Shown piece after piece: positions 9,602 to 15,273 of a DNA stretch of 64,000 bases (positions within the stretch are counted from its first letter, which is position 1; every line of letters starts with the position of its first letter). The notes under the pieces were generated by a model. That model ran no database searches. It was given only the letters and a program-made list of their open reading frames with translations, and was not told where the DNA came from. Source of the DNA: Escherichia phage vB_EcoM-G28; the sequence record NC_054916.1, one strand, 5' to 3'. A program made the position numbers and the translations under genes.

Positions 9602-10885
9602 ATGGCTAAAATCAACGAACTTCTGCGCGAATCAACCACAACGAATAGCAACTCAATCGGTCGCCCAAATCTCGTTGCTTTGACTCGCGCTACCACTAAA
9701 TTAATATATTCTGACATTGTAGCAACGCAAAGAACTAATCAACCTGTTGCTGCTTTTTATGGTATTAAATACCTTAACCCAGATAACGAATTTACATTTA
9801 AAACTGGTGCTACTTACGCTGGCGAAGCTGGGTATGTAGACCGAGAACAAATCACAGAATTAACAGAAGAGTCTAAATTAACTCTCAATAAAGGCGATTT
9901 ATTCAAATATAATAATATCGTTTATAAAGTATTAGAAGATACACCATTTGCTACCATTGAAGAAAGCGATTTAGAATTAGCTCTTCAGATTGCAATTGTT
10001 CTTTTAAAGGTTCGTCTATTTTCTGACGCAGCGTCAACGAGCAAATTTGAAAGCTCTGATAGCGAAATTGCGGATGCTAGATTCCAGATTAATAAATGGC
10101 AAACCGCAGTTAAATCTCGTAAACTTAAAACTGGCATCACAGTTGAATTAGCACAAGATTTAGAAGCAAATGGATTCGATGCTCCTAATTTCTTGGAAGA
10201 TTTGCTTGCAACTGAAATGGCGGATGAAATCAATAAAGATATTCTACAGTCTTTGATTACAGTGTCAAAACGCTATAAAGTTACAGGAATTACTGATACT
10301 GGATTCATTGATTTGAGTTATGCATCTGCACCTGAAGCTGGTCGTTCATTATACCGAATGGTATGTGAAATGGTTTCACATATCCAAAAAGAATCAACTT
10401 ATACAGCAACGTTCTGTGTTGCTTCAGCTCGTGCTGCTGCGATTCTTGCTGCATCAGGTTGGTTAAAACATAAACCAGAAGATGATAAATATCTTTCACA
10501 AAATGCCTACGGGTTCTTAGCTAATGGTTTACCGCTTTATTGCGATACTAACAGCCCATTAGATTATGTAATCGTTGGCGTGGTAGAAAATATTGGCGAA
10601 AAAGAAATTGTTGGATCAATTTTCTATGCTCCGTATACAGAAGGTCTTGACTTAGATGACCCTGAACATGTAGGTGCATTTAAAGTTGTAGTTGATCCAG
10701 AAAGTTTGCAGCCATCTATCGGTTTATTGGTTAGATATGCTTTATCTGCAAATCCTTACACTGTAGCAAAAGATGAAAAAGAAGCAAGAATAATTGATGG
10801 TGGAGACATGGATAAAATGGCGGGTCGTTCAGATTTGTCTGTTTTATTAGGTGTTAAGCTACCAAAAATTATCGTTGATGAATAA
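9602..10885 (+). CDS. 24: Head vertex protein gp24
   Basis: 427 aa; synteny and size as T4 gp24. Confidence 0.9.
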   Translation: MAKINELLRESTTTNSNSIGRPNLVALTRATTKLIYSDIVATQRTNQPVAAFYGIKYLNPDNEFTFKTGATYAGEAGYVDREQITELTEESKLTLNKGDLFKYNNIVYKVLEDTPFATIEESDLELALQIAIVLLKVRLFSDAASTSKFESSDSEIADARFQINKWQTAVKSRKLKTGITVELAQDLEANGFDAPNFLEDLLATEMADEINKDILQSLITVSKRYKVTGITDTGFIDLSYASAPEAGRSLYRMVCEMVSHIQKESTYTATFCVASARAAAILAASGWLKHKPEDDKYLSQNAYGFLANGLPLYCDTNSPLDYVIVGVVENIGEKEIVGSIFYAPYTEGLDLDDPEHVGAFKVVVDPESLQPSIGLLVRYALSANPYTVAKDEKEARIIDGGDMDKMAGRSDLSVLLGVKLPKIIVDE

Positions 10886-11928: not shown

Positions 11929-12207
11929 TCAAAATGTAATTTCTAACCAATCACCATCACGCTGGTCACTATTGACTTTAAAGCTAAATCCTTCTTTTCT
12001 CAGCCAATCACCAATTTCTTCAGTAATCAATTTATCGCGAGCAGTGCAATAATAACTAAAATATGTTTTACCTTGTTCAGCTGCTTTATTAGCAAGTTCC
12101 GAAAAATCTTTAATAAAACACTCTAGTTTAAACTGTTTACTTTTAAGTGCTTTTTCACGTAATTGATTAGCAAAAGATTCATTTTCATAAAGATCATACT
12201 GTTCCAT
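11929..12207 (-). CDS. Hypothetical protein (T4 24.2 position)
   Basis: 92-aa ORF; synteny. Confidence 0.6.
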   Translation of the reverse strand: MEQYDLYENESFANQLREKALKSKQFKLECFIKDFSELANKAAEQGKTYFSYYCTARDKLITEEIGDWLRKEGFSFKVNSDQRDGDWLEITF

Positions 12208-12409
12208 TTTTCACCTTTTTATTAATATGTCTTTTTCTATAGACAACTTTTTCTCGAGTCTCAAATTTATTTTTAGCAGTCATAGCTCGAGCCCATAATA
12301 CAGCCACTTCTTTTGCCTGTAAGTTCAATTCACGAGCAATTTCAATGAATGACTTTCCAGACTCATGAAGAGTAAACACCACAACCTCAGTTCTCATAAT
12401 CAATCTCAT
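12194..12409 (-). CDS. Hypothetical small protein (T4 24.3 position), possible helix-turn-helix
   Basis: 71-aa ORF; the segment SGKSFIEIARELNLQAKEVAVLW resembles an HTH. Confidence 0.5.
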   Translation of the reverse strand: MRLIMRTEVVVFTLHESGKSFIEIARELNLQAKEVAVLWARAMTAKNKFETREKVVYRKRHINKKVKNGTV

Positions 12410-12478
12410 GTTATCGAGTTGGTGCCATTATATACATCATTTTCTGATTGTGTTTTGTGTGCTTTCAAAATGAAGAAA

Positions 12479-12492
12479 GGGGCCGAAGCCCC
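12479..12492 (-). terminator. Stem-loop downstream of the 24.3-position ORF / upstream of hoc
   Basis: ggggc-cgaa-gcccc. Confidence 0.4.
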
Positions 12493-12497
12493 TAAGA

Positions 12498-13916
12498 TTA
12501 TGGATAGGTATAGATGATACCAGTTTCTAAAGCAGTTTTATGAATGATGTATCCATTACGCGATTCTTGAACATCAACTTCCGGATAGTCTTTCATCATC
12601 TTCTGAAGGGTGTAACGATGCAGGTAATATTTACTATCTGGATCGTCAGTTTTCCAATCTTTACCTTCTTCAGTCATTTTTTGGATTTCATCCATAACCC
12701 ACCAACCGCACCAGATGTAAGCTGAAGTACGGTGTGGAAGAGGATGAACATAAGGCAATTCACCTTCTGGTTCCGGAGCAACTTTATCAGTCACTTGAAC
12801 TTGACCTGTTGTTTTAACTGTTTTGCTATCATAATCAGTTGCTGCAACGACAGCAGTAACTTCAATAGTTTGACTTCCAACAGATGAGGTATCGACAGTA
12901 TATACGTTAGTTGACCCTTCTACAGGAGAAGAATCTTTCTTCCACGAGTAAGTAATTTGTGCTTCTTCTGGAGCATCCGTAACATTAGCAGTAAATGTAG
13001 CCGAAGCATCTTGCTGAACGTTAATAGAAGGAGGAGTCAATGTAACCTGTGGATTCATTGTCTTCTTATTAACTGTCAATGATACTTCATTAGAAGTAAC
13101 TTCCTTTTCATTGTAATTTTCTGCTGTTACTTGGGCTACGCATTTAATTCTTTTTACTCCACTTGTAGTTGGAGTATAGCTAAATGTAGAGCTAGTTTCT
13201 CCACCAACTTGTGAATCATCTACATACCACTGATACGTAGCAGATGCTCCATCAGGTTGAGAAGCTAAGGCAGCAGTAAATTGAACTGGGGTTCCAATTA
13301 CTCCAGCTGAAGGACTAGCAGGAGTTACTGCCAATGTAGTTGTCTGTGTCTTTTTATTAACAGTCAGTGATACTTCATTAGAAGTAACGGTTTTTTCATC
13401 ATAATTTGTCGCGGTTACTTGAGCTACACACTTGATTTTTTTAACTCCGCTTGCGGCAGGAGTGTAATTGAATGTAGCAGAAGTCGCTTCGTCTACAGGA
13501 GAACTGTCAACGTACCATTGATACGTAGCAGATGCACCTGATGGCTGCGAAGCTAAAGCAGCGGTAAATTTAACAGCTGTTCCAATTACTCCTGCTGGAG
13601 GACTATTGGGAGTTACGGCTAAGGTAGTCGTCTGAGTTTTGTTTTTGACTGTGATAGTTGTAGTAGCTTCTGCTGTTTCAGCATCAGTATCTGGAACTGT
13701 GTTTGTTGCAACTACTTTAATAGTCTTTTGACCGGCAGGTCCTTTTAGTACATAACTAAAAGTTGCTTCAGCTCCATCCTGTGGAACATCGTCTACAGTC
13801 CAAGCATAGGTAATAGTTCCACCTCCAGTTTCACCACTGGGTGTAGCAGTAAACTGCTGAGTCTGATCTATAACTCCAGTAGGTGTTTTAGGAGTTATAT
13901 CAACTGTAAAAGCCAT
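12498..13916 (-). CDS. hoc: Hoc (highly immunogenic outer capsid protein), extended to 472 aa
   Basis: Ig-like domain repeats plus C-terminal capsid-binding region; T4 Hoc is 376 aa as I recall. Confidence 0.85.
   Translation of the reverse strand: MAFTVDITPKTPTGVIDQTQQFTATPSGETGGGTITYAWTVDDVPQDGAEATFSYVLKGPAGQKTIKVVATNTVPDTDAETAEATTTITVKNKTQTTTLAVTPNSPPAGVIGTAVKFTAALASQPSGASATYQWYVDSSPVDEATSATFNYTPAASGVKKIKCVAQVTATNYDEKTVTSNEVSLTVNKKTQTTTLAVTPASPSAGVIGTPVQFTAALASQPDGASATYQWYVDDSQVGGETSSTFSYTPTTSGVKRIKCVAQVTAENYNEKEVTSNEVSLTVNKKTMNPQVTLTPPSINVQQDASATFTANVTDAPEEAQITYSWKKDSSPVEGSTNVYTVDTSSVGSQTIEVTAVVAATDYDSKTVKTTGQVQVTDKVAPEPEGELPYVHPLPHRTSAYIWCGWWVMDEIQKMTEEGKDWKTDDPDSKYYLHRYTLQKMMKDYPEVDVQESRNGYIIHKTALETGIIYTYP
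13064..13640 (-). repeat. Tandem, diverged duplication of a ~96-codon Ig-like domain inside hoc
   Basis: Two consecutive protein blocks KTQTTTLAVTP...SNEVSLTVNK are near-identical; the DNA copies are diverged. Confidence 0.75.
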
Positions 13917-13925
13917 AAGTTATCC

Positions 13926-14606
13926 TTATTTTAATGTTACGAAAGAAGAATTGCGTGTTTCACGAATTAAAACTGATCCGTCGCGATTAATGTAATAAAT
14001 TAAGCTAAACAAAGTTTGGTGTGCTGACGCGTGTTCAAAACTAGTTGGATGAGATTTCCAATCAGGAGTTTCAGCGATCCATTGATAAATCCACCAAGGA
14101 ACCGTACAGAATCCTGGATTTTTCCCCAATAATTGAAGATTCGGACTAAAGTTTTCCGGAAGAGTAAATACAGACGGCTTTTCAGATTCAATAATCTCAG
14201 CTACAGCTTGTTCAAACTTTTCTTCAACAAAAGGAGTGTCTTCAATCAAAACATCGGTATTTTCAGGAATTTTATCCGTTTCGACTACTTCAATTTTAAT
14301 ATCAGATTTAACCGGAGAATCAATCAGAAGTGCTGCTTCTGGATTAACTTCTTCATCGTCATATTTTAATCCCTCTGCAGCATCAGCAGCATTGATTAAG
14401 TCTTTAATAGATAACCCATCAGTCTCTGGCATAGGTTCACTAGCGAGCTTCTGGAGGGCTTCTTCAATATCAACAACGATATTATCAAAAGATTTATTCT
14501 TTTTGACCTTTATACCAAACTGTTCAGCGTATTCAGCTAATTTAGCTTTAGCTTCTTTATTATCATCAAGAGCCTTCAACTCTGCAATATAATCTTTATC
14601 TATCAT
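13926..14606 (-). CDS. inh: Inhibitor of prohead protease (Inh)
   Basis: 226 aa; position next to hoc as in T4. Confidence 0.8.
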   Translation of the reverse strand: MIDKDYIAELKALDDNKEAKAKLAEYAEQFGIKVKKNKSFDNIVVDIEEALQKLASEPMPETDGLSIKDLINAADAAEGLKYDDEEVNPEAALLIDSPVKSDIKIEVVETDKIPENTDVLIEDTPFVEEKFEQAVAEIIESEKPSVFTLPENFSPNLQLLGKNPGFCTVPWWIYQWIAETPDWKSHPTSFEHASAHQTLFSLIYYINRDGSVLIRETRNSSFVTLK

Positions 14607-14655
14607 AATATTTCCTCAGTATAAATATAGATATATTTATTACTCGGAAAATAGT

Positions 14656-15273
14656 ATGTACCACTTTGTATATGAAACAACAAATCTAATAAATGGTAAA
14701 AAGTATATAGGAAAACACTCTACTGATGACTTGAATGATGGTTACCTTGGTTCCGGTAAGGCAATTCAGCAGGCTATAAAGAAATATGGTGAAAACAATT
14801 TTTCTAGAACAATACTAAAAGAGTTTAAAACTTCCGAAGAAGCGTACATGTATGAAGAAGAAATTATAACTCCTGAAATAATAAAAAGCAAAAATTATTA
14901 TAATATGAAACCTGGTGGAATTGGTGGAATTGTTATGACTACAGAGGTTATAGCAAAGATGAAAGAATCTTCCGCTAAGAGATTTGAAAACTCACCGGGC
15001 ACGGTATTAGGTACAACTTGTTACACTAATGGAACTAAAAATATTTTTATTAAACCTGGAGAACTTGTTCCAGAAGGATTTGTAAAAGGGATGGTTCATC
15101 CTAATAGAAAGTCCAGAAAAGGATGTAAAGTCAAACCGACTACCACAGGAACTTTTTGGGTCAATAATGGTGCAATAAATAAATTAATACAACCAGACGG
15201 TATTATTCCCGACGGATTTATTAAAGGTCGTCTCATGAAAAGAGATTCTAAAGGCAAATTTAGTAAGGCATAA
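14656..15273 (+). CDS. segE: GIY-YIG homing endonuclease SegE
   Basis: 205 aa; N-terminal GIY-YIG motif (YHFVYET...KKYIGKH); position upstream of uvsW. Confidence 0.85.
   Translation: MYHFVYETTNLINGKKYIGKHSTDDLNDGYLGSGKAIQQAIKKYGENNFSRTILKEFKTSEEAYMYEEEIITPEIIKSKNYYNMKPGGIGGIVMTTEVIAKMKESSAKRFENSPGTVLGTTCYTNGTKNIFIKPGELVPEGFVKGMVHPNRKSRKGCKVKPTTTGTFWVNNGAINKLIQPDGIIPDGFIKGRLMKRDSKGKFSKA

Follow-up and report, generated by a model that had tools for sequence, protein, structure and literature searches.

The open reading frame at positions 12498-13916 on the minus strand of the window, by which we mean the whole 64,000-nucleotide stretch of Escherichia phage vB_EcoM-G28 (NC_054916.1), is a single 472-aa ORF. 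With a probability of roughly 0.9, it is hoc in a four-Ig-domain allele, arranged as domain 1 (D1), unit A, unit B, domain 3 (D3) and a C-terminal anchor, and belongs, as one of the common alleles, to an ordered, cassette-like polymorphism in length, most likely generated by repeated loss of units together with some exchange. The extra Hoc domain relative to T4, which a sequence-only reading of the window had noticed, is confirmed. The interpretation offered in that reading is partly supported as a whole.

Locus and domain architecture

Over its first 25 kb, the window shares about 97% identity with Yersinia phage PST, Escherichia phage KMB39 and T6, and it therefore belongs to a Tequatrovirus (T-even) genome. 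The gene order gp24, rnlB, 24.2, 24.3, hoc, inh, (segE), uvsW in the window equals that of the T4 annotation and of six other phages. The ATG of hoc lies 9 nt from the stop codon of inh, and the two genes are therefore probably co-transcribed. Candidate late-promoter and terminator elements flank this pair (Table 1). A scan for sigma-70 promoters was uninformative, with 3 matches against 7.7 expected.

Table 1. Features of the hoc region, with positions counted from the first letter of the window.
Feature	Position	Strand	Evidence and remarks
gp24	9602-10885	+	neighbour gene in the window
rnlB, 24.2, 24.3	downstream of hoc	-	neighbour genes in the window
Terminator-like GC-rich hairpin AGGGGCTTCGGCCCCT, then a T-run	12478-12493	-	5 nt past the hoc stop codon; consensus scan only; putative function
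hoc	12498-13916	-	ORF; apart from the 96-aa gap, 91% identity to T4 Hoc; T4 Hoc chains in the PDB (5vf3_Z etc.) matched by phmmer at E = 2e-218, best stretch 189-472 on 93-376; placed between inh and 24.3 as T4 hoc
C-terminal capsid-binding domain, aa 377-472	12501-12788	-	94/96 (98%) identical to T4 Hoc 281-376
Ig-like domain 3 (D3), aa 287-376	12789-13058	-	79/90 identical to T4 D3; AF2 beta-sandwich
Unit B, aa 191-286, orthologue of T4 Hoc domain 2	13059-13346	-	pI 4.81; 88/96 aa and 92% nt identical to T4 D2
Unit A, aa 95-190, Ig/PKD-like, absent from T4 Hoc	13347-13634	-	repeat copy 1 in gene orientation; pI 8.05; pLDDT 91-96; 76/96 identical to T4 D2
Ig-like domain 1 (D1), aa 1-94	13635-13916	-	82/94 identical to T4 D1; AF2 beta-sandwich, pLDDT 88-94; carries E29 and G33
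inh (prohead protease inhibitor)	13926-14606	-	immediately upstream of hoc
Late-promoter-like AATAAATA, 7/8 match	~14633-14640	-	upstream of the inh ATG; read by eye; putative function
GIY-YIG segE-like ORF	14656-15273	+	beyond inh; uvsW next

The hoc gene of T4 is 1131 nt long and encodes 376 aa (NC_000866 110187-111317). Pairwise alignment of the window Hoc with T4 Hoc leaves exactly 96 residues unmatched in a single gap, and the rest is 91% identical. Thus the lengths of 472 and 376 aa given in the sequence-only reading hold, and the two proteins, instead of being equally long, differ by exactly one 96-aa unit.

A repeat search and Tandem Repeats Finder agree on one tandem repeat, consisting of two 288-nt copies at 13059-13634 (76-77% identity, TRF score 684). 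The copies are in frame with the codons. Between units A and B, 219 of the 288 nucleotides (76%) and 78 of the 96 residues (81%) are identical, leaving 18 differing amino acid positions, and the third codon positions are only 55% identical. The differing codons comprise 36 synonymous and 18 non-synonymous ones. By the Nei-Gojobori method, dS is 1.20, dN is 0.13 and dN/dS is approximately 0.11, so that the synonymous divergence is near saturation. By these values, units A and B are old paralogues, both under constraint. Two adjacent paralogous domains of about 96 aa had been described earlier as about 85% identical; the adjacency and the paralogy stand, and the protein identity has to be lowered to 81%. 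The accompanying statement, that the DNA copies are diverged and the duplication is not recent, agrees with the nucleotide identity and with dS.

Assemblers are well known to stumble over tandem repeats, and a mis-assembled repeat might inflate hoc. However, the copies differ at 24% of positions, so an assembler could not confuse them, and the reading frame is intact. Full-length 1419-nt matches also occur in many independently sequenced genomes, as well as in metagenome-derived proteins. The likelihood of an assembly or sequencing artefact is therefore negligible.

The Pfam family PKD (PF00801) matches in two stretches and reaches 39.5 bits, against a cutoff (gathering threshold) of 23.5, at residues 197-267 in unit B. 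Matches to Ig_3, Ig_2, I-set, V-set, PKD_3 and PKD_4 all fall below their cutoffs; those to Ig_3 and I-set locate at 289-356 in D3. An HMM derived from the units scores high on the two units (188 and 196 bits) and low on D1 and D3 (~31-35 bits), so that all four Ig-like domains are distantly related. In the AF2 model, built on a 39-sequence alignment, four beta-sandwich domains extend over residues 1-380 with a pLDDT of ~81-96 in 10-residue blocks, and the strand patterns of residues 95-190 and 191-286 can be overlaid almost exactly. The C-terminal domain is poorly modelled (pLDDT <50), and we identify the anchor by its 98% sequence identity to T4.

Searching the PDB with Foldseek returned the four-Ig strings of Dscam1 (Ig1-4), ICAM-5 (D1-D4) and Sidekick (Ig1-4), with E-values of ~1e-12 to 1e-13, together with the RB49 Hoc crystal structure 3SHS (E = 3e-10, probability 1.00). 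The TM-scores of these matches are low (0.15-0.35) because the inter-domain angles differ, and the fold was assigned from E-values and probabilities only. The alignment, the synteny and the fold evidence, including a PKD match above its cutoff and four predicted beta-sandwiches, bear out the earlier identification of the gene as hoc with one more Ig-like domain than T4 Hoc. We notice no evidence contradicting the identity and architecture of the window Hoc.

Hoc length classes in Tequatrovirus

Megablast with the hoc gene matched 655 phage records; a colinear match of 1419 nt is present in each of the first 34, with ECO4 in first place (96.7%). The best 120 cluster representatives in the protein database comprise 79 proteins of 376 aa, 29 of 472 aa, 7 of 568 aa and a few near-variants. 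Because these representatives were scored against the 472-aa query, their proportions are biased to long forms, and the frequencies were taken from two systematic spread samples instead. In the sample drawn with the unit A query (60 of 615 records), 34 records hold one unit, 22 hold two units, 4 hold three units and none falls outside these classes. In the sample drawn with the whole gene (60 of 655 records), 32 records hold one unit (span ~1131 nt, with the degraded 1117-nt hoc of T2 counted here), 20 hold two units (1418-1425 nt) and 2 hold three units; the others are 2 records of ~850 nt (PNJ-9 and AV111) and 4 in which only the C-terminal domain matches. The unit A query found 888 places in the 615 records, implying ~200 two-unit and ~36 three-unit records. 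We set aside a junction-spanning BLAST count, in which non-colinear pieces join into one place, as seen with H35.

On the basis of the two samples, taken from ~615-655 Tequatrovirus records, the 472-aa class accounts for about 1/3, the 568-aa class for ~3-7% and the 376-aa class for ~55%, along with a few proteins of ~283 aa. The classes differ in steps of 96 aa. The four-Ig Hoc is thus real and ordinary, one of four coexisting length classes (~283, 376, 472 and 568 aa). The extra domain had been framed as a noteworthy departure, and this framing is not supported for a form found in about a third of the deposited genomes. All cluster representatives of 472 aa have intact frames. The gene is broken in several deposited genomes, namely T2, T6 and ECML-134.

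The 472-aa form is present in RB27, Yersinia phage PST, Sf21, Sf23 and SHFML-11, and the Hocs of these phages and of ECO4, slur02, BF15 and others are identical to the window Hoc in architecture and length. Their DNA is 90-96.7% identical over 1419 nt, with point differences only, and the best full-length protein match is 93-94% identical. The proteins are annotated as Hoc, head outer capsid or PKD-domain protein. In hundreds of GenBank records, the 472-aa protein carries the annotation Hoc.

T4 Hoc (NP_049793; PDB 5vf3, 8t1x, 8t9r; model in PMC10385173) occupies the same gene position and is likewise an acidic, monomeric Ig-domain fibre on a C-terminal anchor; the window protein adds the 96-aa Ig/PKD-like unit A (aa 95-190) between D1 and the T4-type D2. 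The 568-aa (A-B-C) Hoc shares the unit family, D1 and the C-terminal domain with the window Hoc and has one more D2-type unit. The ~283-aa Hoc of PNJ-9 (D1-D2-Cterm) shares the same parts, with a single unit and without D3, the absence of domain 3 having been reported before (PMC11853027). The PNJ-9 segments N92-T97, A122-G127, A165-Y172 and N180-T185 map one-to-one onto unit A of the window.

Beyond the genus, Hoc homologues are known to keep the anchor while the Ig string varies from 1 to 10 domains, with ten Ig domains in the Hoc of Serratia phage Muldoon (PMC10385173). A Hoc-like protein of Klebsiella phage PMBT63 has four Ig domains, with one additional Ig-like domain relative to T4 (PMC13435897). 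RB49 Hoc (3SHS), PMBT63, Muldoon and T5 pb10 share with the window Hoc a design of one capsid-binding domain and a variable Ig string. In contrast, their sequence identity is low (RB49 is ~22% identical to T4), and their extra domains arose independently. The long Hoc form is hence already known in kind and in instance. In the openly searchable literature, we found no description of an ordered A/B/C unit polymorphism in Tequatrovirus, of the 376/472/568 series, of the domain-2 duplication or of 376-aa alleles with either A or B; what it contains are broad remarks on varying domain number and isolated cases (PNJ-9, PMBT63 and Muldoon). We regard the ordered A/B/C pattern as a modest population-genetic observation, not a new system.

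Order and ancestry of the domain-2 units

Clustering of the 96-aa units of 122 Hocs gave four types: A, which includes a subtype a, B, C and a mosaic D. Single-unit alleles of 376 aa carry A in 48 representatives and B in 26, the latter including T4 and near-variants of 377 and 379 aa, and rarely carry C or D. Two-unit alleles are AB or aB (23), aC (3), aD (3), BC (1) and Ax (2, where x is an unclassified second unit), and three-unit alleles are aBC, aBD or aDC. Among the 39 multi-unit representatives, there is no B-A, A-A or B-B arrangement.

Orthologues of unit A occur in many other phages at 84-100% nucleotide identity. The window unit A is 100% identical to the first unit of ECO4, 90% to the sole unit of SH7, 90% to the sole unit of an IMG/VR locus (L005), 90% to the first unit of slur02 and 86% to the first unit of UGKSEcP1. 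Meanwhile, the window unit B is 92% identical to the T4 unit and 95% to the second unit of slur02. Identity between A and B is 74-81% throughout. At 21 sites, the A and B lineages carry fixed differences, and the two window units are type A at 21/21 and type B at 21/21, respectively. An IMG/VR scan for related loci gave 21 loci, few of them close, and the comparison DNA was thus taken from GenBank phage records.

The Nei-Gojobori estimates separate the two kinds of comparison. Between units A and B within a gene, dS is 1.20-1.37 with dN/dS of 0.08-0.11. Between phages, dS is 0.14-0.34 for orthologous units and, for the window against other phages, 0.15-0.40 for the D1 and D3/C-terminal flanks. 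T4 and SH7 have a dS of 0.07 in domain 1 and of 1.03 in domain 2 (B vs A; dN/dS 0.10). Furthermore, D1 clusters at 96% identity hold mixed architectures, for example A sixteen times, B twice and AB once in one cluster. By these comparisons, the A/B split long predates the diversification of the sampled phages, both units are under purifying selection, and the architecture of Hoc varies independently of the sequence that flanks the units. In SH7-type alleles, the one domain 2 is the orthologue of unit A, and the domain 2 of T4 is the orthologue of unit B. T4 is better described as being without unit A, and the SH7-type 376-aa alleles as being without unit B.

The implicit model of the sequence-only reading was a tandem duplication of a T4-type domain 2 in this phage or its close relatives, starting from a three-Ig ancestral Hoc. 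The units are indeed adjacent, exactly 288 nt each and clearly homologous, and the reference phage T4 has one unit. However, the dS of ~1.2 between the units is four to eight times the divergence of orthologous units between phages, orthologues of unit A are found in many phages, even as the sole domain 2 of 376-aa alleles, and the architecture is common to about 1/3 of the records. We therefore consider a lineage-specific duplication very improbable. A recent or private duplication is refuted by the dS of 1.2 and by the occurrence of the two-unit form in about 1/3 of the 615-655 records. A duplication dating back to the origin of the genus is compatible with the data and forms part of the best explanation.

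Another possibility is that the two-unit allele was gained, perhaps repeatedly, by unequal crossing-over between co-infecting A-only and B-only phages. Both kinds of allele exist and are common, and T4-type phages recombine easily when the multiplicity of infection is high (PMC9271167). Mosaic units are known in RB33, in the third unit of UGKSEcP1 and in an IMG/VR locus (L004). Moreover, runs of up to 21 nt are the same in both units, which at the protein level also begin (QTTTLAVTP) and end (TSNEVSLTVNKKT) identically. Such crossing-over, however, is expected to produce B-A and A-B alleles equally often, along with A-A and B-B ones; the 39 multi-unit representatives include no B-A, A-A or B-B (0/39), and the three-unit alleles keep the colinear order. 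This origin therefore seems rather unlikely to us. A single unequal exchange followed by spread makes the same prediction in these data as an ancestral array.

The strict A-B-C order favors an old ordered array over unequal exchange. In the simplest and most likely reading, an ancestral multi-unit array, in the order A, B (or mosaic D), C, gave rise to the length polymorphism as whole 288-nt units were repeatedly lost in frame, with some exchange from unit to unit, instead of a unit being gained in this phage; a few alleles are without D3. With moderate confidence, the sequences suggest either such an array with repeated unit loss, or a single origin then spread by recombination. The direction of change was read from the unit order and the mixed architectures within D1 clusters; the scheme is unrooted, and recombination would confound a rooted tree.

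A sister clade comprises Hoc proteins of ~50% identity that measure 282, 377 and 472 aa. Its extra unit, seen in two IMG/VR loci (L006 and L007), copies the D3-type domain, not the D2 type, and is ~48% identical to its neighbour. Whole-unit changes in copy number thus recur independently in that clade.

Fibre reach, ligand contacts and significance

T4 Hoc has three Ig domains that form an almost linear fibre of ~180 Å (~18 nm). By cryo-EM, its C-terminal domain locates at the centre of the gp23* hexamers, with one Hoc monomer per hexamer and 155 per prolate head, and the protein is dispensable for infectivity (PMC10385173). Since the anchor of the window Hoc is 98% identical to that of T4, it should likewise attach at the centre of the gp23* hexamer, and the Ig string would project outward as a monomeric fibre as in T4. 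An extra beta-sandwich of ~96 aa would lengthen the ~18-nm fibre by ~4-4.5 nm, as estimated from 180 Å for four domains.

Adherence to fucosylated mucin glycans or bacterial surfaces via Ig domains has been reported for the Hocs of T4, phiPNJ-6 and PNJ-9 (PMC9271167; PMC11150434; PMC11853027). In phiPNJ-6 Hoc, E29 and G33 of D1 are needed for MUC2/fucose binding (PMC11150434). Both residues are present in D1 of the window Hoc, in which residue 29 is E as in phiPNJ-6, whereas T4 has Q29. In PNJ-9 Hoc, S183, L184 and T185 of domain 2 are needed (PMC11853027). The NEVSLT segment that holds these residues is found in both window units, at 180-185 and 276-281. Because this segment forms the last beta-strand in the AF2 model, the PNJ-9 mutations may have acted by destabilising the fold. 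The T4 mutation D246N altered the binding to fucosylated glycans (PMC9271167), and the alignment places D342 of the window at the position of T4 D246.

Ten of the 18 differences between A and B fall in residues 138-155, which take in the loop predicted to link strands 129-136 and 148-151 and run into and past the second strand. With this and the computed pI values (Table 1), units A and B could plausibly present different binding surfaces. A second domain-2 surface of different charge may alter how the fibre adheres, weakly and multivalently, to fucosylated mucin glycans or bacterial surfaces, and a longer reach with altered adhesion is a plausible consequence of the added unit. The idea of altered adhesion fits published statements that the number of Hoc domains varies and matters for adhesion.

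Alternatively, the extra unit may be functionally neutral, a tolerated spacer in a dispensable protein whose length drifts by slippage and recombination. Hoc is non-essential in the laboratory (PMC10385173), the gene is broken in T2, T6 and ECML-134, and every length class is found among phages that infect the same hosts. In contrast, the A/B dN/dS of ~0.1 and the intact 472-aa frames indicate long-term purifying selection on both units. The concentration of A/B differences in 138-155, largely a predicted loop, and the unit pI of 4.8 vs 8.1 are typical of a ligand-facing surface. We hold neutrality to be possible though on the unlikely side; the purifying selection and the loop pattern, for their part, fall short of proof of an adaptive difference between the length classes.

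A fuller account can be put forward tentatively, and we judge it doubtful as a whole. Under it, the domain-2 paralogues of hoc would have diverged long ago and would form a cassette array of fixed order, in which recurrent unit loss and exchange produce two to five Ig domains, selection by adhesion niche holds the classes at intermediate frequency, and the three-Ig Hoc of T4 is a derived, shortened form.

The value of the present case as a discovery is small, since the gene, the family, the long form and the variation in Ig number are already in databases and papers. For users of Hoc as a display or vaccine scaffold, and for the selection of therapeutic T-even phages for mucosal retention, it is relevant that natural alleles of 2-5 Ig domains coexist. 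The T4 allele is not the sole form, nor necessarily the ancestral one. The contrast between A and B in charge and in one largely loop-forming segment provides a natural experiment on which Hoc surface binds what. Meanwhile, in a virus that recombines so freely, the strict order of the units illustrates neatly, on a small scale, how a domain array can evolve by losing units.

Clustered differences between the two D2-type units

Comparing the tandem units A and B of Hoc reveals that 10 of the 18 amino-acid differences between them fall within a single segment, residues 138–155 of unit A and the counterpart 234–251 of unit B. This segment covers a predicted loop between the strands at residues 129–136 and 148–151, and extends beyond the second strand. 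The calculated pI is 8.05 for unit A and 4.81 for unit B. The segment may act as a ligand-facing surface.

Features in and around hoc in the window and in related phage records (positions refer to the sequence named)
Feature	Sequence	Positions	Strand	Remark
Hoc residues 138–155 (unit A)	window	13449-13502	-	A/B difference cluster
Hoc residues 234–251 (unit B)	window	13161-13214	-	counterpart of 138–155
Gene 24.3 homologue	window	12194-12409	-	DUF2774 per ECML-134 annotation
Exact late-promoter motif TATAAATA	window	14620-14627	+	just upstream of segE-like ORF
GIY-YIG segE-like homing endonuclease ORF	window	14656-15273	+	between inh and uvsW
hoc, T2	L030, AP018813	5598-6581		three CDS pieces, about 984 nt annotated; BLAST match 1117 nt
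hoc, T6	L029, AP018814	3204-4335		two overlapping CDSs
hoc, ECML-134	L024	1219-2349		two CDSs

Neighboring genes and fragmented hoc annotations

T4, ECO4, slur02 and ECML-134 carry the segE-like ORF at the same inh/uvsW site as the window, whereas SH7, RB33 and UGKSEcP1 lack it, with uvsW directly following inh. This mobile endonuclease ORF lies about 700 bp from hoc, and by driving co-conversion it could help to make hoc alleles mosaic. On the downstream side, the gene 24.3 homologue reads as 71 aa in the window and SH7, whereas the annotated length is 56 aa for T4 and, for several other phages, 67 aa (204 nt); the discrepancy probably reflects the choice of start codon.

We notice that hoc is split into pieces in the annotation of several deposited genomes, those of T2, T6 and ECML-134, and the overlapping CDSs of T6 imply a frameshift. 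Such fragmentation fits the dispensability of Hoc, and sequencing errors in the deposited genomes may also be its source.

Domain number in related Hoc proteins

In the Tequatrovirus-like phages PNJ-9 (PQ100635) and AV111 (OR352941), hoc is only about 850 nt long, and the protein has a single D2-type unit between D1 and the C-terminal domain and lacks D3. These two phages bring the natural Hoc series down to two Ig domains. A sister clade of Hoc proteins, represented by IMG/VR loci L006-L013 (match from 1501 onward), is about 50% identical, with the N-terminus MAY[TS]V.IAPL and sizes of 282, 377 and 472 aa. Here the extra unit is a D3-type domain copied in tandem, identical to its neighbor at 43 of 90 positions. 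The sister-clade Hoc is an independent instance of copy-number change by whole units.
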